DNA from: Escherichia coli
Lineage (GTDB): Bacteria > Pseudomonadota > Gammaproteobacteria > Enterobacterales > Enterobacteriaceae
Assembly: GCF_030013205.1 (NCBI RefSeq)
Contig: NZ_CP122648.1
DNA length: 64,000 nt
Strand: one strand, 5' to 3'
Shown in pieces: positions 28,033 through 59,623 of the stretch (position 1 is the first letter of the stretch; each line of letters starts with the position of its first letter). The notes under the pieces were generated by a model. It was not told the origin of the DNA and searched no databases. It was given only the letters and a program-made list of their open reading frames with translations. A program made the position numbers and the translations under genes.

Positions 28033-29256
28033 TCAATGCGCATGGGTAGCACTTTCAGAGCGCATCCGCTCCAGTGCGCCAGAAATATTGGCTTCGGAAT
28101 CAATCAGGAACAGGCCGCTGGAAACCACCTTTTCACCTTCCGCCAGACCAGAGCGTAATGCGGTGACGCCTTGCGATGCCTGGAAAACGGCAACGCGTTT
28201 CGGTACAAAGCGCCCGTCGGCATCAACGGTAATCACCCGCTGTTCGCTGCCGGTATCAATCAGCGCTTGTGACGGAATGAGCAGCATCGGTTCGCTGGCG
28301 GTGTTGAGTTGCAACCAGGCGTTCATTCCCGGCTTTAGCGCCTCGTCGGTGTTGTCGACTTCCAGGCGCAGCTGCAGCGTGCGGGTTGCGGCATCCACGC
28401 CGGGTAGCAGCGTCCATTTGCGGATGGTGAGTGTTTTATCAGGTCGTGCCGGAACGGTGAGCGTAAACTGCGAGGCATCTTTCACCAGCCAGGCGATGGA
28501 CTCCGGGATCGCGGCAGTGATCCACACCGGATCCATACCCTGAATTTTCGCGACCACGTTATCTTTGGCGATATTCATTCCCGCGCGCAGATCAAACGCG
28601 GTGATCACGCCATCAATGGGCGCTTTGAGCGTAAAGCGAGTCTGGATTTTTTGCGTGGCGATCAGGCGGCGAATATCCGCCTCCGGCATTCCCGCCAGTC
28701 TCAGCCGCTCAAGAATGCCTTCAGTCTGGGTCGCCGTACCGCCAGTTTCGCGCAGCAGTAAATACTCACTCTGCGCTTCCACCCAGTCGGGAATGGTCAG
28801 GTCGAGAAGCGGCGCGCCCTTTTGTACTTTATCGCCCACGGTAAGCGGATACACCTTGTCGATAAACCCGGCGGCGCGGGCCTGCACAATGGCATACTGA
28901 TACTCGTTGTAACTGACATTCGCCGGGAAACTTTGGGCAAAAGTCAGCGGCCCGCGCGTGACGGTCGCCGTTTTCACCCCCAGATTCTGCGTCTGAGTCG
29001 GGTCAATGCGCACACCAGACGCAGAACTCTCTTCATCGGCATATTTCGGCACCAGATCCATATCCATAAACGGCGATTTACCTGGTTTATCGAACCGCGT
29101 ATTGGGATACATCGGGTCGTACCAGAATAAGATTTTACGTTCTGCGGTCGACGTTTTTTCTGCGGGCGGTTCCGCCTTTGCAAACCAGGTAAAACCTGCC
29201 GCAGAAATAATACCGCCCGCGATCATGCTGCCGATAATAAGCGCGATTTTTTTCAT
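28033..29256 (-). CDS. cusB: Cu(I)/Ag(I) efflux membrane fusion protein CusB
   Basis: 407-aa ORF MKKIALIIGSMIAGGIISAAGFTWF…. Confidence 0.95.
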   Translation of the reverse strand: MKKIALIIGSMIAGGIISAAGFTWFAKAEPPAEKTSTAERKILFWYDPMYPNTRFDKPGKSPFMDMDLVPKYADEESSASGVRIDPTQTQNLGVKTATVTRGPLTFAQSFPANVSYNEYQYAIVQARAAGFIDKVYPLTVGDKVQKGAPLLDLTIPDWVEAQSEYLLLRETGGTATQTEGILERLRLAGMPEADIRRLIATQKIQTRFTLKAPIDGVITAFDLRAGMNIAKDNVVAKIQGMDPVWITAAIPESIAWLVKDASQFTLTVPARPDKTLTIRKWTLLPGVDAATRTLQLRLEVDNTDEALKPGMNAWLQLNTASEPMLLIPSQALIDTGSEQRVITVDADGRFVPKRVAVFQASQGVTALRSGLAEGEKVVSSGLFLIDSEANISGALERMRSESATHAH

Positions 29257-53452: not shown

Positions 53453-54018
53453 GCGTTAGTTTCTCCACAACCAGAAGCAATCGACGCCACGACGCCCGGA
53501 GCTGCACACTCGCGGGCGTCATTACTTTCTGAAATGCAAAAAATTTTGTAGACAAGTGCTGCATGCTCCTGCAGCTTCGAAATTGAGAGATACAGCTCGT
53601 CGTTAATTGCTGTCTTCTCATGCGGTTCCACTACACCGTCTTCGATTGCTGAACGAATCTGTTTTGAATAACTGCCGATCTGTTCAATGACTTCCAGCAG
53701 ACGCTGGTTAATATCGGCGTTGTCCACATCCTCGACGTCAGGAAGAGACACAAAGACGCCATTTGCAGACTGCGCCACAGCATCAGCAATGAAGTGAGTG
53801 CCACCAGCACGCTGTAAAACCATTGCCCATCCCAGCGGGAAAATCTGATCGCCATCTGCACGAAGGCGGTTGAATAAAGCGTTTTCTGTTACATCGAGCC
53901 AGTCAGCCGCTTCAGCGTAACCACCCGGCAACGCCGCGATAGTTTTTCTGACAGCTTTCACGTACCACTCAGGCTGTTTTTCTATTTTCCAGTGATGCTT
54001 ACCCACGATTAGCCTCAT
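53449..54018 (-). CDS. phage regulatory protein in the cII position (CII-like, function not verified)
   Basis: 189-codon ORF directly downstream of the cro-like gene on the same strand; assignment by gene order, family not confirmed. Confidence 0.5.
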
Positions 54019-54049
54019 CGTTCTGTGGTTAAAAATTGAAAGTGTTCTG

Positions 54050-54250
54050 CTAATCTTTCGGATAGATATCCGGTCTTAAGTCAGATTTCGTAATTGCACC
54101 TGACGTGCATTGCTCAAGTTTTTTAGCCAGCACAAAACTGGCTTTTTTATAGCCATTGAAAACCAGCCGTAAGTAGCCAGGTGTTGAGCCAACTTTTCCG
54201 GCCAACTCGCCCTGCTGTTCTTTGGTTAAAGAGTCCCAATACGCTTTCAT
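54050..54250 (-). CDS. Cro-like HTH repressor
   Basis: 66-aa product MKAYWDSLTKEQQGELAGKVGSTPGYLRLVFNGYKKASF… with GGAGG 10 nt upstream; divergent from cI across a palindromic operator region. Confidence 0.7.
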   Translation of the reverse strand: MKAYWDSLTKEQQGELAGKVGSTPGYLRLVFNGYKKASFVLAKKLEQCTSGAITKSDLRPDIYPKD

Positions 54251-54340
54251 ACAATATGTACCTCCGATGTACATATCACATGATTAAAATGAACCTTCAA
54301 GATACTTGTACCTTAACGGTACAAGGGTTTTAATTTCGTT
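54251..54340. promoter_or_regulatory. OR-like operator/promoter region between the cro-like gene and cI
   Basis: Two palindromes sharing a TGTACC half-site: atatgtac-ctccgat-gtacatat (54254-54276) and cttgtacc-ttaac-ggtacaag (54306-54326). Confidence 0.65.
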
Positions 54341-55015
54341 ATGAAAACAATCCATGACATCCGGCGGTCTAACGCCAGAAAACTGAGAGATGGTGTTGGC
54401 GGGAATTCTTCCTTTGCCACTATGATTGATCGCGAGCCAACCCAGACCAGCAGGTTTATGGGAGATGGTGCTACTAAAAATATCGGTGACAGCATGGCAC
54501 GACACATCGAAAAATGTTTCGACCTGCCTGTCGGATGGCTCGATCAAGAACACCAGACAACGAACATCACAAAAAAACCTGATGTTTCAATCACTAATAA
54601 ACAAATCACATTAGTCCCTGTCATATCATGGGTACAGGCCGGAGCATGGAAAGAAGTTGGATATTCTGAGGTTGATTTGAGCACAGCAGAAACGTATCCC
54701 TGCCCTGTACCCTGTGGGGAAATGACTTATATCCTGCGGGTGATAGGTGATTCAATGATTGATGAGTACCGCCCGGGAGACATGATTTTTGTCGATCCTG
54801 AAGTACCTGCCTGCCACGGTGACGACGTTATTGCATTGATGCACGATACAGGTGAAACCACCTTCAAAAGGTTGATAGAAGATGGGACACAGCGTTATCT
54901 CAAAGCGTTAAACCCAAACTGGCCTGAGCCTTACATTAAGATCAACGGTAATTGCTCTATAATTGGAACTGTGATTTTCTCAGGAAAACCAAGAAGATAC
55001 AAAATCAAAGCCTAA
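54341..55015 (+). CDS. CI-like phage repressor (N-terminal HTH, C-terminal LexA/S24-type autopeptidase)
   Basis: 224-aa ORF with the S24 serine motif (VIGDSM) and a downstream lysine (TFKRL). Confidence 0.85.
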   Translation: MKTIHDIRRSNARKLRDGVGGNSSFATMIDREPTQTSRFMGDGATKNIGDSMARHIEKCFDLPVGWLDQEHQTTNITKKPDVSITNKQITLVPVISWVQAGAWKEVGYSEVDLSTAETYPCPVPCGEMTYILRVIGDSMIDEYRPGDMIFVDPEVPACHGDDVIALMHDTGETTFKRLIEDGTQRYLKALNPNWPEPYIKINGNCSIIGTVIFSGKPRRYKIKA

Positions 55016-55026
55016 TCAATGTTTAT

Positions 55027-55050
55027 GAACCTGCTTCGGCAGGTTTTTTT
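55027..55050 (+). terminator. intrinsic terminator after cI
   Basis: gaacctgc-ttcg-gcaggtt followed by ttttttt. Confidence 0.75.
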
Positions 55051-55054
55051 ATAC

Positions 55055-55095
55055 TTGACAATGTACCTTTGAGATACATAATGTACCCAAGAGAA
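55055..55095 (+). promoter_or_regulatory. pL-like sigma70 promoter with OL-like operator half-sites
   Basis: TTGACA (55055-55060), 16 bp, CATAAT (55077-55082); two AATGTACC motifs overlap it, matching the TGTACC half-site of the OR palindromes. Confidence 0.55.
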
Positions 55096-55229
55096 ACAAC
55101 AAACAGGCAGGACCCCCACGAAGTATCCGCCTGGGGCATATGAAGTTCAGGATGATTCGTTAGCAACAAAAAAGCGCCCTACAGGACGCTTAGCTCTTTA
55201 ACAATCTGGATATCCACAACAGTAGTAAT

Positions 55230-55721
55230 CTACAGATTGCCGTTAAGTTTTCTGGACAACTCCTCAATGGATGGAGGCGATACGTAATCCGGATTTTTAT
55301 TCATCAGAAACTTATTTTCACAGTGGAGGCACCTGCTTTTATGAAAAAGCTCATCTTCGCTAACCGGGAATGGTTGAAGTATCGATACTATCTTTTGTCC
55401 AAAACATTTTGGGCAAAGATGCATGGTTATGCTGCCACCGTTCACGATTACCTCCTTCGAGTATACAAAAGTACCCGACTCAAGTTGGTTAAGGATATAG
55501 CCTTCCGTCTGAGCCTCAAAGTTTTCGAATTCTGCAATTTTAGCTTTGAGAGAAGCATTTATTTCTTGATAAGAGCCCACCAGTTCAACGAGAGACACGC
55601 ATTCGCGCTGAATAGACGCAAGCTTTGAGTTCAGCTCACCAATAGCCGCATTTACTTCAGCTTGAGTTTTTGCCTCGTTCATTAGTTTTGCAATCTGGGC
55701 TGTTTCACGAATAGCCGTCAT
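55230..55721 (-). CDS. prophage moron: coiled-coil protein with C-terminal C4 zinc ribbon, function unknown
   Basis: 163 aa from MTAIRETAQIAKLMNEAKTQAEVNAAIGELNSKL…; CPKCF…(18 aa)…CLHCE; AT-rich; start uncertain (alternative GTG at about 55754). Confidence 0.55.
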   Translation of the reverse strand: MTAIRETAQIAKLMNEAKTQAEVNAAIGELNSKLASIQRECVSLVELVGSYQEINASLKAKIAEFENFEAQTEGYILNQLESGTFVYSKEVIVNGGSITMHLCPKCFGQKIVSILQPFPVSEDELFHKSRCLHCENKFLMNKNPDYVSPPSIEELSRKLNGNL

Positions 55722-55789
55722 TGCTGCCGTTAATTCAGCGATCACATTGAATACTCTTATTGTTGTTGGGGATATCCAGATTAACCGAA

Positions 55790-56214
55790 TCCTTGTTGTT
55801 GGGGAATAACCAGGTCCACCTCGCCTGATGTGGCTAAAAGCAGGCACATAACAGCTAAGTATTTTCAACCAGAGAGAATCCTTAGCGTTGTGGTGAATGC
55901 GGCTCAGCGCACGCGGGTTAAGGTTGAGGCTGACAGTCGACCTTCTGTGGATACCCACCCGCCTGGTGTGCAACCTTCGCCAGGCACCGGGAGGCACCCG
56001 GCACCACAACTTTATGCTGTGTGTAGTCCTGGCGGTACCAGCTTGTACCCTTGCTTCCGGCTGGTACCGTCCTTTTTACAAAACAGAGAAGAGCATCACC
56101 GGACGACGGGCTCATAACCCAATCCATCCGGGCGGCGGCCACCACAGGTGTTCTTCTCTGTTTTGTGGAGAAACTAATCGGCCTTGCAGGGTCGATATGA
56201 TGAGGAGCAGCAAA
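55790..56214 (+). other. GC-rich, highly structured non-coding region (candidate structured RNA or recombination remnant)
   Basis: Nested inverted repeats: gcctgg/ccaggc, ccggg/cccgg, ggtaccagc/gctggtacc (9 bp), and caaaacagagaaga…tcttctctgttttg (about 15-17 bp); ORFs here lack plausible starts. Confidence 0.4.
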
Positions 56215-56577
56215 ATGGCTAGCGAACGCAGTACTGATGTGCAGGCATTTATCGGGGAGCTGGACGGCGGCGTATTTGAAACCAAAATCGGCGCAGTTCT
56301 CAGTGAAGTCGCTTCCGGTGTGATGAACACGAAAACCAAAGGTAAGGTCTCACTCAACCTGGAAATCGAACCATTTGATGAGAACCGTGTGAAAATCAAA
56401 CACAAACTCTCATATATTCGCCCGACTAACCGCGGGAAAATTTCCGAAGAAGACACCACCGAAACGCCGATGTATGTCAATCGCGGTGGTCGCCTGACTA
56501 TTCTGCAGGAAGACCAGGGACAATTACTGACTCTTGCCGGTGAACCTGACGGAAAACTCCGCGCAGCAGGTCGTTAA
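56215..56577 (+). CDS. yfdP: YfdP-like prophage protein (CPS-53 homologue as I recall)
   Basis: 120-aa product MASERSTDVQAFIGELDGGVFETKIGAVLSEV… with GAGGAG 9 nt upstream of the ATG. Confidence 0.7.
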   Translation: MASERSTDVQAFIGELDGGVFETKIGAVLSEVASGVMNTKTKGKVSLNLEIEPFDENRVKIKHKLSYIRPTNRGKISEEDTTETPMYVNRGGRLTILQEDQGQLLTLAGEPDGKLRAAGR

Positions 56578-56642
56578 TATCGTTCGTAATAAACTGATTA
56601 TTTATCTCATCACTGAATATCTTTATATAGTGAGGACTTATT

Positions 56643-57467
56643 ATGTCTCAGAACTTAGACGCAACCGCAATTAATCAAATCCATGCCCTTATTTCTGCTC
56701 AGGGTGTTAATGAAATTATCAGTAAGATTGGTGCCGATGCTGTGGCATTGCCTGAGAATTTCCGCATTCATGATCTGGAAAAATTTAATTTAAATCGCTT
56801 CCGTTTCCGTGGTGCACTTTCCACTGCCAGCATCGATGATTTTACCCGTTATTCTAAAGATCTTGCAGATGAAGGCACCCGCTGCTTTATCGATGCCGAT
56901 AATATGCGTGCCGTCAGTGTGCTTAACCTGGGTACTATTGATGAGCCAGGTCACGCAGATAACACTGCCACTCTCAAACTGAAAAAGACAGCACCGTTCT
57001 CTGCTCTGTTGTCTGTTAACGGCGAGCGTAACTCCCAGAAGTCACTGGCAGAATGGATCGAAGACTGGGCCGACTACCTTGTGGGCTTTGATGCTAATGG
57101 TGACGCCATTCAAGCAACAAAAGCGGCTGCGGCAGTCCGTAAAATCACGATTGAAGCAAACCAGACCGCTGATTTTGAAGATAATGACTTCAGCGGCAAA
57201 CGCTCCCTGATGGAGTCTGTCGAAGCGAAGACCAAAGACATTATGCCAGTGGCATTTGAATTTAAATGCGTTCCGTTTGAAGGTCTGAAAGAACGTCCGT
57301 TTAAATTACGCCTCAGCATTATCACTGGCGATCGTCCTGTACTGGTTCTGCGCATTATTCAGCTGGAAGCGGTGCAGGAAGAAATGGCTAACGAATTTCG
57401 TGATCTGCTTGTTGAGAAATTCAAAGACAGCAAAGTAGAAACCTTTATTGGTACTTTCACCGCCTGA
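56643..57467 (+). CDS. yfdQ: YfdQ-like prophage protein (unknown function)
   Basis: 274-aa [33 protein letters not shown]…. Confidence 0.7.
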
Positions 57468-57594
57468 TTTCATTACTGCAAATGCCCCTGCGGGGGCATT
57501 TATGGAAACGTAATTAACTCAATAATCACCGGATGGTGAGGGCTTCCTTTTACCAGAATTCAGCGCGGTGCAGTGCATATACGTGGAGAACAAA

Positions 57595-58656
57595 ATGTCA
57601 TTTATTAAAACTTTTTCCGGGAAGCATTTTTATTATGACAAGATAAATAAAGACGACATCGATATTAACGATATCGCGGTTTCCCTTTCAAATATCTGTC
57701 GCTTTGCCGGTCATCTTTCGCACTTCTACAGCGTCGCCCAACATGCGGTTCTTTGCAGCCAGCTGGTGCCGCAGGAATTTGCTTTTGAAGCGTTAATGCA
57801 TGATGCAACAGAAGCGTATTGCCAGGACATTCCCGCACCACTGAAACGCCTTCTTCCTGACTATAAACGGATGGAAGAAAAAATAGACGCCGTAATCCGT
57901 GAGAAATACGGGTTATCAACTCAGACAAAGGCAAAGCATCTTGCCATGATAAAGGCCATTCTCCGTGCTGCAGAACGCGACTGGAAGTGGCTGGAAAAAG
58001 CGCCTGTCATCAAGATACCAGCGGTCAGAAACAAGCGAGTCAGATGGCTGGAAAAGGAGGAAGCAAAACGCCTTATTGATGAGTGCCCCGAACCACTGAA
58101 ATCTGTCGTCAAGTTTGCGCTGGCAACTGGTCTGAGAAAGTCGAACATCATAAATCTGGAATGGCAACAAATCGACATGCAGCGACGAGTTGCCTGGGTG
58201 AATCCAGAAGAGAGCAAATCAAACCGCGCCATTGGTGTGGCGCTGAACGATACCGCCTGTAAAGTGTTGCGTGATCAAATAGGCAAGCATCACAAATGGG
58301 TGTTTGTACATACCAAGGCGGCTAAGCGAGCAGATGGAACATCAACGCCTGCGGTCAGGAAGATGCGCATCGACAGCAAGACATCATGGCTATCAGCTTG
58401 TCGTCGTGCAGGAATTGAAGATTTCCGTTTCCATGACCTCAGACACACCTGGGCAAGCTGGCTGATCCAGTCAGGCGTCCCATTATCTGTGCTTCAGGAA
58501 ATGGGCGGATGGGAGTCCATAGAAATGGTTCGTAGGTATGCTCACCTTGCGCCTAATCATTTGACAGAGCATGCAAGGAAAATAGACGACATTTTTGGTG
58601 ATAATGTCCCAAATATGTCCCACTGTGGAATTATGGAGGATATAAAGAAGGCGTAA
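57595..58656 (+). CDS. chimeric ORF: HD-domain phosphohydrolase N-terminus (YfdR-like) fused in frame to a tyrosine-recombinase catalytic domain (IntD-like)
   Basis: N-terminal 115 aa [15 protein letters not shown]…AGHLSHFY…[14 protein letters not shown] (HD motifs); the rest (…[19 protein letters not shown]…[10 protein letters not shown]…VRRYAHL…) is an integrase C-terminal domain with R/H-x-x-R/Y residues; ends 15 bp from argU. Confidence 0.8.
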
Positions 58657-58671
58657 CTGATTGAATTGTAA

Positions 58672-58748
58672 TGGCGCGCCCTGCAGGATTCGAACCTGCG
58701 GCCCACGACTTAGAAGGTCGTTGCTCTATCCAACTGAGCTAAGGGCGC
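58672..58748 (-). tRNA. argU: tRNA-Arg (anticodon UCU), argU
   Basis: Reverse complement reads GCGCCCTTAGCTCAGTTGGATAGAGCAACGACCTTCTAAGTCGTGGGCCGCAGGTTCGAATCCTGCAGGGCGCGCCA (77 nt, encoded CCA). Confidence 0.95.
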
Positions 58749-58990
58749 GTTGATACCGCAATGCGGTGTAATCGCGTGAATTATACGGTCAACCCTTGCT
58801 GAGTCAATGGCTTTTGATCTGGTTGCTGAACAAGTGAACGACCGCGTCTGATTTTCTGATTTATTTCGCTATAGCGGCAAACAAACGCACATCGCTGCGC
58901 GTCTGAATCAAGAAAACCCGTATTTTCATGTATCAAAGTACAATTTCCCGCCCTAACGGAAAATTGTCCGATCCAATGAGACTGGTAACT

Positions 58991-59623
58991 ATGAAACCAA
59001 CGTCGGTGATCATTATGGATACTCATCCTATCATCAGAATGTCTATTGAAGTTCTGTTGCAAAAAAACAATGAATTGCAAATTGTCCTGAAAACGGATGA
59101 TTATCGCATAACCATCGATTATCTCCGAACCCGTCCTGTTGATTTAATCATTATGGATATAGACTTGCCCGGAACAGACGGTTTTACCTTCCTGAAAAGG
59201 ATCAAACAAATCCAGAGCACAGTGAAAGTATTATTTTTATCATCGAAATCAGAATGCTTTTATGCTGGCAGAGCGATACAAGCTGGTGCTAACGGTTTTG
59301 TCAGTAAATGCAATGATCAAAATGATATTTTTCACGCCGTTCAGATGATCCTCTCCGGATACACTTTTTTCCCCAGCGAAACGCTCAACTATATAAAAAG
59401 CAATAAATGCAGTACGAATAGTTCAACGGTCACGGTGCTATCTAATCGTGAAGTGACCATATTACGTTATCTGGTTAGCGGATTATCCAATAAAGAAATT
59501 GCCGATAAGTTATTACTTAGCAATAAAACAGTTAGTGCGCATAAATCTAATATTTATGGCAAGCTAGGTTTGCATTCAATTGTAGAGCTTATCGACTATG
59601 CCAAATTATATGAATTAATATAA
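58991..59623 (+). CDS. fimZ: LuxR/NarL-family response regulator FimZ
   Basis: Start chosen at MKPTSVIIMDTHPIIRMSIEVLLQKN (210 aa) inside ORF 58928..59623. Confidence 0.93.
   Translation: MKPTSVIIMDTHPIIRMSIEVLLQKNNELQIVLKTDDYRITIDYLRTRPVDLIIMDIDLPGTDGFTFLKRIKQIQSTVKVLFLSSKSECFYAGRAIQAGANGFVSKCNDQNDIFHAVQMILSGYTFFPSETLNYIKSNKCSTNSSTVTVLSNREVTILRYLVSGLSNKEIADKLLLSNKTVSAHKSNIYGKLGLHSIVELIDYAKLYELI

Follow-up and report, generated by a model that had tools for sequence, protein, structure and literature searches.

Recent truncation and selection in the phage pool explain an intact yfdP-yfdQ pair in an Escherichia coli prophage remnant

The closest described relatives of the genes studied here are yfdP and yfdQ of the cryptic prophage CPS-53 (KpLE1) of E. 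coli K-12 and homologous pairs in complete phages. Multicopy expression of the K-12 genes inhibits initiation at oriC, an effect that needs yfdQ together with yfdR and either yfdS or yfdT, and for which yfdP is dispensable (PMC4776307). In the same study, YfdR bound domain I of DnaA, pull-downs revealed no strong affinity of YfdQ for either YfdR or DnaA, and the authors conceded that the overexpression effect may be an artifact (PMC4776307). Deletion of yfdQ is reported, in work cited in PMC4776307, to sensitize cells to H2O2 and MMS, and deletion of yfdQRST is reported to leave initiation and hydroxyurea resistance unaffected. Among phages, a homologous pair heads the early-left operon, between the repressor and xis/int, in SfV (orf32/orf31), ST64B (sb37/sb36), phiNP (046/047), LLS (gp39/gp38), Kati, PhiR29_2, and Stx2c phages; phages that have a recombination module and phages that lack one both carry the pair, and the growth of LLS is enhanced by RecBCD (PMC12315714).

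The locus analyzed here lies in a window of 64,000 nucleotides, the whole stretch of E. coli DNA under study. Like CPS-53, it carries the same two families in the same order with the same 65-nt spacing, followed by yfdR, and the two genes share 98.5 to 98.6% nucleotide identity with their K-12 counterparts, with 2 to 3 amino acid differences per protein. YfdQ of the window is 100% identical in amino acid sequence to YfdQ of Kati, PhiR29_2, and the Stx2c phages and 59% identical to that of phiNP. The window copy sits at argU next to fimZ/sfm (the DLP12 position), whereas the K-12 copy occupies the CPS-53 site next to dsdC; cI, cro, PL, and the leader survive in the window, whereas the K-12 yfdP directly adjoins a truncated yfdO; and, unlike in CPS-53, yfdR of the window has been destroyed by fusion to intD. 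In contrast to SfV, ST64B, phiNP, LLS, Kati, and the other complete phages, the window holds only a prophage remnant of about 7 kb.

The gene for YfdP (120 amino acids) occupies positions 56215 to 56577 and that for YfdQ (274 amino acids; DUF2303) positions 56643 to 57467, both on the plus strand. A sequence-only reading of this DNA had called the two genes yfdP-like and yfdQ-like, with intact open reading frames and a good ribosome-binding site for yfdP, and all of this proved right. Both frames are intact, a Shine-Dalgarno sequence GAGGAG (56202 to 56207) lies 7 nt 5' of the yfdP ATG, yfdQ also has a GAGGA 6 nt 5' of its ATG, and Pfam, PHROGs, and RefSeq agree on the identification. In strain K_EC180, whose sequence matches the window at 100% identity, RefSeq places "protein YfdP" (WP_001546523.1) and "YfdQ family protein" (WP_000081287.1) at the same coordinates. 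YfdQ matched Pfam DUF2303 (PF10065) over positions 2 to 269 of the 269-position profile (E value of 2e-92; 309.7 bits against a gathering score of 26.6) and phrog_210 (E value of 2.6e-120), and its length is typical of the family (267 to 285 amino acids for homologues in the alignments). YfdP matched phrog_204 (E value of 5e-49) and had no Pfam match in the copy searched, which did not hold the PF27127 model; that model, named "YfdP," is found on database cluster representatives 98 to 100% identical to YfdP. An HMM that we built from 98 YfdP homologues recovered all YfdQ partners. Judged by these profile matches, homology is far above chance for both proteins, and the window genes are genuine, already catalogued prophage genes that add no new entity. 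A longer in-frame reading frame from 55897 (226 amino acids) is probably not the real yfdP, because homologues align from M1 at 56215, the ribosome-binding site is located there, and RNA hairpins and a terminator lie upstream.

The pair is located inside an SfV-like prophage remnant whose right end and attachment site are the tRNA-Arg gene argU (58675 to 58748, minus strand; Rfam tRNA, 72 bits; tRNA-Arg in RefSeq). A cro-like gene (54050 to 54274, minus strand) and a cI-type repressor gene (54341 to 55015, plus strand; ymfK-like, LexA/S24; Peptidase_S24 E value of 1.5e-26; "LexA family protein" ymfK in RefSeq) are both intact, and two 17-bp palindromes of the form TGTACC-N6-RTACA, resembling OR operators, lie between them (54257 to 54273 and 54307 to 54323). 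This motif occurs 9 times on the two strands, where 1.05 matches are expected, every perfect match falls either here or at PL, and the SfV annotation has a "putative operator region" in the corresponding place. The repressor gene is followed by a terminator (55027 to 55046, plus strand) and a PL-like promoter (TTGACA-16-CATAAT; 55055 to 55082, plus strand) that matches the consensus at 11 of 12 positions and is overlapped by two further copies of the operator motif (55062 to 55078 and 55082 to 55098). From the consensus matches and the common motif, we infer that these elements function as PL and its operators.

Several elements separate this promoter from yfdP. An intact antisense "moron" open reading frame of 171 amino acids (55230 to 55745, minus strand; phrog_1244; WP_000559922.1) is flanked by 26-nt inverted repeats (55203 to 55228 and 55757 to 55782). 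Beyond it, the segment from 55857 to 56080 on the plus strand resembles the STnc100/PasD small RNA (Rfam RF02076), aligning with the full-length model (positions 1 to 206) at 42.4 bits (E value of 7e-8 in a 601-nt search). This falls short of the gathering score of 47, and the segment is probably a divergent variant of that type. It ends in a terminator-like hairpin with a U-run (56031 to 56071; dG of -26.3, z of -4.3). RefSeq has a "frameshifted hypothetical protein" pseudogene that coincides with this segment. The yfdP leader then forms a long hairpin on the plus strand (56073 to 56171; stem of about 25 bp, inverted repeat 94% complementary), with a predicted dG of -46.5 kcal/mol and a z score of -6.1; none of 200 shuffled sequences folded as well. 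Directly 3' of the yfdQ stop codon, a GC-rich plus-strand hairpin with a weak U-run (57480 to 57501; dG of -17.5, z of -2.2), which the terminator scan did not detect, is possibly a partial terminator or a stabilizer. The gene order of cI, terminator, PL-like promoter with operators, leader, yfdP, yfdQ, yfdR, (xis), and int is found both here and in the functional phage SfV. The pair, which sits here in a repressor-controlled PL operon, is a module of the early-left (PL) operon of SfV/ST64B-type lambdoid phages and many other proteobacterial phages.

The integration and replication genes around the pair had been described as truncated or fused, and this was confirmed. Immediately downstream lies an in-frame yfdR'::'intD fusion (57595 to 58656, plus strand; junction at 57914/57915), for which RefSeq gives the yfdR start at 57595 within a frame open from 57568. 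In it, the first 107 codons of yfdR, which encodes an HD-domain 5'-deoxynucleotidase, run into the catalytic C-terminal portion of intD, the gene for the integrase, and the product matches the Pfam YfbR-like/HD family at residues 50 to 113 and Phage_integrase at residues 159 to 330. Additionally, a replication-protein gene (52862 to 53104) and the tail-fiber-assembly genes are present as fragments. Alignment with strain E14, which still has yfdR, a yfdS-like gene, yfdT, xis, and intD, showed that the fusion arose by a deletion of 1,521 bp. Since yfdP and yfdQ are 100% identical to E14 at the nucleotide level and the flanks differ at only 4 of 2,818 and 5 of 1,087 positions, the deletion is too recent for decay to be expected.

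The two genes are inseparable across the phages that carry them. All loci from an initial IMG/VR scan were of the E. coli type, with 99 to 100% identity, and single-protein scans added 22 loci. A YfdP homologue was found directly upstream of a YfdQ homologue on the same strand in every one of the 128 loci fetched, representing 23 YfdQ lineages at 90% identity and including lytic phages of Vibrio, Xanthomonas, and Acinetobacter, whereas no further neighbor was universal. Order, pairing, and length are kept at 25 to 40% identity across gammaproteobacterial phages. Three lineages have an overlap of 1 to 8 nt between the genes, suggestive of translational coupling; in six distant phages, they are separated by a spacer of 53 to 65 nt that showed no conserved sequence or structure. 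Overall, yfdPQ is among the most strongly conserved gene sets in the early-left operon of many phages.

Conservation and dN/dS had been proposed as the check on whether intactness reflects selection. Since IMG/VR alleles picked by protein identity are biased for the dN/dS of yfdQ, the ratios were recomputed on alleles sampled by nucleotide identity, and the pooled values were 0.047 for yfdQ and 0.099 for yfdP (about 0.05 and 0.10); one sampled allele differed by 18 synonymous and 0 nonsynonymous changes. As for inactivating mutations, none of 89 E. coli-type loci was disrupted; truncated copies of yfdQ exist in other E. coli, where the gene has matches in 2,721 genomes and is full-length in only 2,495, with O157:H7 strains, for example, having only its 3' third. 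The dN/dS values and the undisrupted E. coli-type loci support the conclusion that both genes are under strong purifying selection and are functional in the phage pool. Because functional phages such as Kati, PhiR29_2, and the Stx2c phages carry identical alleles, the low dN/dS reflects phage-level selection, which dominates the family-wide value.

The suggestion that retention in a degraded prophage hints at selection is not supported at this locus. As the pair is 100% identical to the undeleted form in E14, decay has not had time to set in; other parts of the remnant, namely, the cI-like, cro-like, ymfL, and DUF4222 genes and the antisense frame, are equally intact; and truncated yfdQ copies exist in other E. 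coli. The intact repressor and the operators over the PL-like promoter imply that the genes are normally silent. On the branch after the deletion there are zero substitutions, and hence no power for a test of host retention. Thus, yfdPQ is intact here as a result of recent truncation and strong purifying selection in the circulating phage pool, and its intactness is not demonstrably due to bacterial need.

The proteins themselves were compared with sequence and structure collections. A PDB relative is entry 9o7m, "YfdQ Protein," from a Xanthomonas CP2/MET23-P3-like phage, which matched YfdQ residues 16 to 273 at about 39% identity (E value of 1.2e-44). It comprises 36 chains of the YfdQ homologue plus chains A and B and contains no YfdP; no 9o7m chain matched the YfdP homologue encoded directly upstream of YfdQ in the source-type phage, a downstream 471-amino-acid protein, or a 2,063-amino-acid concatenate of the early operon. 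Full-text searches found no paper on it. The AF2 model of YfdP (pLDDT of 91.4) has one long helix and a three-stranded sheet. The YfdQ model has a pLDDT of 77.6, and its N-terminal 55 residues are conserved, yet of low confidence in the monomer model. YfdQ is acidic (pI of about 5, net charge of about -10), and few invariant polar residues are left across distant members. No fold relative of either protein was found in the structure libraries searched (entries to 2026-04-08, 9o7m not among them), PDB sequence and profile searches with YfdP returned nothing, and relaxed-E-value Pfam scans of all alignment members gave only scattered noise. A profile-profile comparison indicated that YfdP and YfdQ are unrelated (probability of 0.1%).

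The neighborhood of the pair points to DNA metabolism. In 10 of the 23 lineages, which form about four independent groups, an ERF/RecT annealing protein, a YqaJ/lambda-type or RNase T-type exonuclease, or an SSB is encoded on the same strand within 3.5 kb. YfdR-like genes adjoin the pair in only 3 of the 23 lineages, and lytic phages carry it without YfdR, so the DnaA link cannot be the core function. The oriC assay does not explain the obligate pairing, as yfdP is dispensable there.

For the pair in this recently truncated prophage, we tentatively favor an early module acting in DNA replication or repair, with YfdQ as an oligomeric scaffold. The intact cI-type repressor would keep the pair silent until SOS-induced cleavage of the repressor allows transcription from PL, and transcripts toward yfdP would have to read through the sRNA-like element, its terminator, and the long hairpin. 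YfdQ, acidic and of an unrelated fold, would assemble into a large homo-oligomer. Together with the small YfdP, produced in an amount linked to its own, it would form a nonenzymatic scaffold that acts at an early stage in DNA replication or repair. In E. coli phages, this scaffold may cooperate with the adjacent YfdR, a binder of DnaA domain I, and with YfdS/T in holding down DnaA-dependent initiation at oriC, which would amount to a takeover of host replication. The earlier suggestion of a host takeover activity finds some published support in the multicopy inhibition of oriC. We hold the scaffold mechanism with moderate to low certainty. Set against it are the acidity of YfdQ, which disfavors simple DNA binding, the lack of any sequence or fold relative giving a clue to biochemical activity, and the fact that the neighborhood of recombination genes is also where anti-defense genes cluster, with a Tad2-like domain gene near the pair of a Vibrio phage. 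A bolder form of the reading, possible but doubtful, is that YfdP-YfdQ is a two-component phage machine of new fold that had gone unrecognized, in which YfdP would load or cap the large YfdQ oligomer. Soon after infection, the complex would engage the host replisome or intermediates of replication or repair, and its conservation would span temperate phages of enterobacteria and lytic phages of Vibrio, Xanthomonas, and Acinetobacter. If true, phage factors for DNA transactions or for control of host replication would gain a new class, neither an anti-defense gene nor a known recombination protein.

An anti-defense activity, also raised by the sequence-only reading, is the strongest competitor, although we consider it unlikely. 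YfdQ with YfdP would neutralize bacterial immunity as an oligomeric sponge, decoy, or inhibitor and would be the first product made from PL. In SfV-type phages, the coding part of the PL operon opens with this pair, a typical position for counter-defense genes, several sponges and DNA mimics are likewise acidic and form large homo-oligomers, YfdQ has no enzymatic signature, the Tad2-like domain gene of Vibrio phage 34E29.1 is only 0.9 kb downstream, and presence of the pair irrespective of a recombination module (PMC12315714) fits as well. However, the idea gained no support in what was a weak test: neither protein matched a named anti-defense or defense family in Pfam, PHROGs, NCBIfam, or PADLOC, none of which is a dedicated anti-defense library, and the null result in PADLOC, a collection of defense proteins, bears only on the pair as a defense system. 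The very low dN/dS and the conserved order, pairing, and length resemble a housekeeping phage function more than an arms-race gene, and the K-12 phenotypes concern replication initiation and DNA damage tolerance rather than phage resistance.

Less probable again is domestication, in which the bacterium would keep yfdPQ in cryptic prophages for survival of oxidative or alkylation damage or replication stress. The long-degraded CPS-53 of K-12 also retains yfdP to yfdT intact, a full-length pair is present in about 46% of complete E. coli genomes, SOS derepression would time expression to DNA damage, and the yfdQ deletion is reported, in work cited in PMC4776307, to raise H2O2 and MMS sensitivity. 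Against these stand the absence of time for selection at this locus, the identity of its alleles to those of functional phages, the truncated yfdQ copies, and the reported lack of effect of the yfdQRST deletion on initiation and hydroxyurea resistance.

That the pair is an unrecognized strand-annealing protein or RecBCD inhibitor replacing the Rec module of SfV/ST64B/LLS-type phages is largely refuted and very improbable. Its position in phages without exo, bet, and gam is that of the Rec module, it adjoins ERF or RecT, exonuclease, and SSB genes in several other phages, and annealing proteins also form large oligomers. Nevertheless, TL-2011c encodes Gam, RecT, Exo, and SSB as well as the pair, ERF and YqaJ accompany it in MET23-P3 and the Vibrio phages, and ArgO145, as cited in PMC12315714, combines it with a complete Rec module. 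Neither a match to family HMMs of single-strand annealing proteins (Rad52/Redbeta/ERF/RecT) nor, in the fold search, a Rad52-like beta-beta-beta-alpha core was found, the proteins have no homology to the RecBCD inhibitors Gam and Abc2, and the enhancement of LLS growth by RecBCD means that the pair is not a RecBCD inhibitor. Finally, that the genes are functionless passengers not yet hit by mutation is scarcely credible and refuted for the family by purifying selection and conservation across distant phages, even though the deletion is recent, other remnant genes are equally intact, and the window copy may never be expressed.

What is new here is the obligate pairing, the estimates of purifying selection, the null result of the fold searches, the PDB relative, and the placement in the PL operon behind RNA elements. 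Knowing the activity of yfdPQ would close a gap in the understanding of how replication of host and phage DNA is managed by lambdoid phages that lack a recombination module and would explain the published DnaA/oriC and DNA damage phenotypes of CPS-53. As a point of method, intact frames in a truncated prophage are evidence of host selection only if, at the given mutation rate, the truncation dates far enough back.

Two groups of known systems bear on the preferred replication/repair reading. Lambda P and Bacillus subtilis SirA are phage or developmental proteins that block DnaA-dependent initiation, as the overexpressed YfdQRST set does; however, the direct DnaA binder of the Yfd set is YfdR rather than YfdQ or YfdP, and there is no homology to lambda P or SirA. 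The lambda exo-xis genes (ea22, ea8.5, and orf60a-63), which have no sequence or fold similarity to yfdPQ, occupy the same place in the PL operon with the same timing, and the likeness is one of analogy only. These accessory genes affect the replication and cell cycle of the host and the balance between lysis and lysogeny, and PMC10834534 cites the YfdQRST study in that context.

The window carries yfdP (56215-56577, + strand, 120 amino acids) and yfdQ (56643-57467, + strand, 274 amino acids), which RefSeq annotates at exactly these coordinates as "protein YfdP" and "YfdQ family protein." YfdQ matched Pfam DUF2303 (E value, 2e-92) and phrog_210 (2.6e-120), while YfdP matched phrog_204 (5e-49), and its database cluster bears PF27127, named "YfdP." Ribosome-binding sites were found 7 nt upstream of the yfdP ATG (GAGGAG) and 6 nt upstream of the yfdQ ATG (GAGGA). 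Thus, the sequence-only reading had recognised the genes correctly, and what it had observed, a yfdP-like and a yfdQ-like gene with intact open reading frames and a good yfdP ribosome-binding site, holds in every detail; the pair is already catalogued.

YfdP and YfdQ form an obligate pair. YfdP was present in all 128 fetched loci encoding YfdQ (23 YfdQ lineages at 90% identity), and clustering of the neighbouring open reading frames in these loci gave no other universal neighbour. The DUF2303 gene is immediately preceded by a YfdP homologue in the Vibrio podophage 34E29.1 (39% identity), Xanthomonas phages Tabio and MET23-P3 (39%), TL-2011c (58%), Halomonas phage H4907, Citrobacter phage phiNP, Acinetobacter phage Mystique (HMM E value, 1.5e-21), and several metagenomic contigs. 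A full-database search returned 438 YfdP clusters at 50% identity. The MET23-P3 homologue (28717-29091 of locus L091) is called a "translation elongation factor" in GenBank, an evident mis-annotation, and that of H4907 is labelled "DUF2303," as is its neighbour. An overlap of 1 to 8 nt between the genes of the pair in three lineages suggests that their translation is coupled. The spacer is 53 to 65 nt long in the window (56578-56642) and in the fetched loci L003 (Vibrio phage 34E29.1), L004, L005, L088, L089, and L090, seven distant phages of E. coli, Vibrio, Xanthomonas, Acinetobacter, Halomonas, and Citrobacter; in other lineages, the genes overlap or are at most 35 nt apart. Comparison of the seven long spacers revealed no common sequence or obvious structure, and several were C/A-rich.

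The pair is clearly functional in the phage pool, where it is under strong purifying selection. A first scan found both open reading frames intact in 82 of 82 loci that had been picked by protein identity. We then compared the window with eight alleles chosen by nucleotide identity (E. coli strain E14, the K-12-type cryptic prophage CPS-53, phage SfV, and five other E. coli strains), all of which were intact. Nei-Gojobori dN/dS values ranged from 0 to 0.08 for yfdQ (pooled, 0.047) and from 0.085 to 0.62 for yfdP (pooled, 0.099), with one yfdQ allele showing 18 synonymous and zero non-synonymous differences.

The AF2 model of YfdP (98-sequence alignment; pLDDT, 91.4) consists of a 30-residue helix on three long strands and a flexible tail. 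That of YfdQ (pLDDT, 77.6) has a confident alpha/beta core starting at residue 58; model confidence is low for the N-terminal 55 residues, although A9, I10, P37, E46, R52, and R56 within them are invariant. The proteins show no relationship to each other, and neither model had meaningful fold relatives among PDB entries released up to 2026-04-08, a library that did not hold 9o7m (best Foldseek E value for YfdQ, 0.06). By sequence, YfdQ matched 9o7m (E value, 1.2e-44), an entry entitled "YfdQ Protein" with 36 chains that is 98.8% identical to the YfdQ of MET23-P3; chains A and B are also present. The YfdP homologue and other early proteins of MET23-P3-type phage had no PDB match, and a literature search found no publication on 9o7m. 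YfdQ is acidic (pI of about 5 and net charge of about -10). Few polar residues are invariant across its most distant members, a pattern that favours a role in scaffolding or binding over an enzymatic one.

In published work, multicopy yfdQ and yfdR together with yfdS or yfdT suppressed over-initiation and inhibited initiation at oriC; the inhibition required yfdQ, yfdP was dispensable, and YfdR bound DnaA domain I (Noguchi and Katayama, PMC4776307). For YfdQ, YfdS, and YfdT, the same authors write that the roles "remain unclear," and they regard an overexpression artefact as conceivable; reports cited there describe increased sensitivity of a yfdQ deletion to H2O2 and MMS. According to a 2018 preprint, producing YfdQ triggers plaque formation by another phage. 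Zheng et al. (2025, PMC12315714) say of the two genes that they "have no known function." Our preferred reading is that YfdQ would be an oligomeric, non-enzymatic scaffold with YfdP as its partner, that the two may act soon after induction on transactions of DNA replication or repair, and that in enterobacterial phages YfdQ might cooperate with YfdR/S/T in restraining DnaA-dependent initiation. We put this package forward tentatively, as a possibility. An anti-defence function, which the sequence-only reading had offered as an example, appears unlikely: Pfam, PHROGs, and NCBIfam gave no match to a named family of this kind, and the gene evolves unusually slowly for such a role.

Domestication to the benefit of the host is a somewhat more doubtful proposal, and this locus carries no power for it. 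Positions 51000 to 59000 are 100% identical to the porcine E. coli strain K_EC180. The prophage remnant (about 7 kb) is flanked on one side by an alpha/beta-hydrolase gene adjoining ompT and on the other by tRNA-Arg (argU) and fimZ; in K-12, DLP12 sits at the same argU site. As had been noticed from the sequence, neighbouring genes are truncated or fused: the replication and tail-fibre-assembly genes survive only as fragments, and 57595-58656 (+ strand) is an in-frame yfdR::intD chimera joining the first 107 codons of yfdR, which encodes an HD 5'-deoxynucleotidase, to the catalytic part of intD (junction, 57914/57915). Its product of 354 amino acids (362 if an upstream GTG is used) combines half an HD domain with the integrase catalytic domain. 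Alignment with E14 traced the fusion to a 1,521-bp deletion; E14 retains yfdR, a yfdS-like gene, yfdT, an xis-like fragment, and intD. Many porcine ETEC and related strains share the junction at 99.9 to 100% identity, which marks a recent, clone-specific event. The duplicated tail-fibre-assembly fragments (repeats 89% identical) flank a class I SAM-methyltransferase gene (51979-52647) and contain two Rfam IS009 matches on the - strand (51696-51899 and 52745-52944), one scoring 133.7 bits (gathering score, 117) and the other 108.4 bits.

The claim that intactness hints at selection for retention finds no support at this locus. Both genes are 100% identical in nucleotide sequence to those of the undeleted E14, with 4 differences in 2,818 positions and 5 in 1,087 in the flanks; essentially no substitutions have accumulated after the deletion, and unbroken reading frames are what the null hypothesis predicts. 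Other genes of the remnant are in the same state, namely those resembling cI and cro, ymfL, the DUF4222 gene, and an antisense open reading frame. Kati, PhiR29_2, and several Stx2c phages, all of them functional, encode an identical YfdQ protein. In other E. coli, the pair does decay: 2,721 of 5,426 complete genomes had a match, full length in only 2,495, and in some O157:H7 strains only the 3' third of yfdQ is left, adjoining tail genes. Given the recent deletion, the intact neighbours, and the decay elsewhere, the window locus gives no evidence of host selection.

A core recombination or anti-RecBCD function is very unlikely, although recombination genes lie close by in several phages. The gene order is Gam, RecT, Exo, SSB, YfdP, YfdQ in TL-2011c; YfdP, YfdQ, a weakly DUF1351-like protein, x, ERF, x, YqaJ exonuclease, SSB in MET23-P3; and ERF, YqaJ exonuclease, RNase T-type exonuclease, YfdP, YfdQ, SSB in Vibrio phage 34E29.1. 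In the same operon of the latter, 0.9 kb downstream of yfdQ-ssb, a protein with a Tad2-like (Thoeris anti-defence) domain is encoded (L003, 6712-7221; E value, 4e-22). An annealing protein, exonuclease, or SSB occurs within 3.5 kb on the same strand in 10 of the 23 lineages, about four independent groups, and YfdR-like genes stand beside the pair in only 3. SfV, ST64B, phiNP, the Halomonas phage, and other temperate phages carry the pair between repressor and integrase, without recombination genes. Growth of phage LLS, which carries the pair, is enhanced by RecBCD (PMC12315714); this excludes a RecBCD inhibitor, makes a core recombinase unlikely, and largely refutes the proposal. A functionless passenger is refuted for the family and scarcely credible. 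Overall, the family would repay experimental work.

The pair occupies an early-left position. An intact cI-type repressor gene (54341-55015, Peptidase_S24) lies next to an equally intact divergent cro-like gene. Two 17-bp palindromes (TGTACC-N6-RTACA) fall in the cI/cro intergenic region (54257-54323), and two more (55062-55098) overlie a near-consensus promoter directly downstream of the cI terminator (55055-55082, TTGACA-16-CATAAT); counting both strands, the motif occurred 9 times, whereas chance would give 1.05. On the strength of these consensus matches, the palindromes probably represent the operators OR and OL for this immunity type, and the promoter PL. An antisense open reading frame of 171 amino acids (55230-55745; phrog_1244), with a coiled-coil N terminus and a CxxC...CxxC C terminus, has 26-nt inverted repeats on either side (55203-55228 and 55757-55782, 85% complementary) and resembles a "moron" cassette that was inserted between PL and yfdP. 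Next comes an STnc100/PasD-like element (55857-56080, + strand) that matches STnc100, a family of prophage sRNAs, over its full length but scores 42.4 bits, short of the gathering score (47); it has a strongly conserved CACCGGGAGGCACCCGGCACCA core and a 3' terminator-like hairpin (56031-56071) with a U-run. STnc100 has been tied to the PasD sRNAs of Stx phages (2026 preprint); in several strains, RefSeq labels this stretch "frameshifted hypothetical protein," probably a mis-annotated RNA locus. A very stable leader hairpin (56073-56171, + strand; about 25 bp in the stem; dG, -46.5 kcal/mol; z, -6.1) separates the sRNA-like terminator from the yfdP ribosome-binding site and could serve in processing, antitermination, or translational control; positions 56030-56214 are 94 to 96% conserved in many lambdoid phages carrying yfdP. 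The order predicted downstream of PL is antisense open reading frame, STnc100-like element, stem of about 25 bp, yfdP, yfdQ, GC hairpin, and yfdR'. In the functional phage SfV, a different gene, orf33, takes the place of the antisense open reading frame, but the order matches: cI, terminator, orf33, terminator, orf32 (YfdP), orf31 (YfdQ), orf30 (YfdR), orf29, orf28, xis, int. With this order shared by the window and SfV, yfdP and yfdQ lead the conserved coding genes of an early-left operon that is probably controlled by the repressor.
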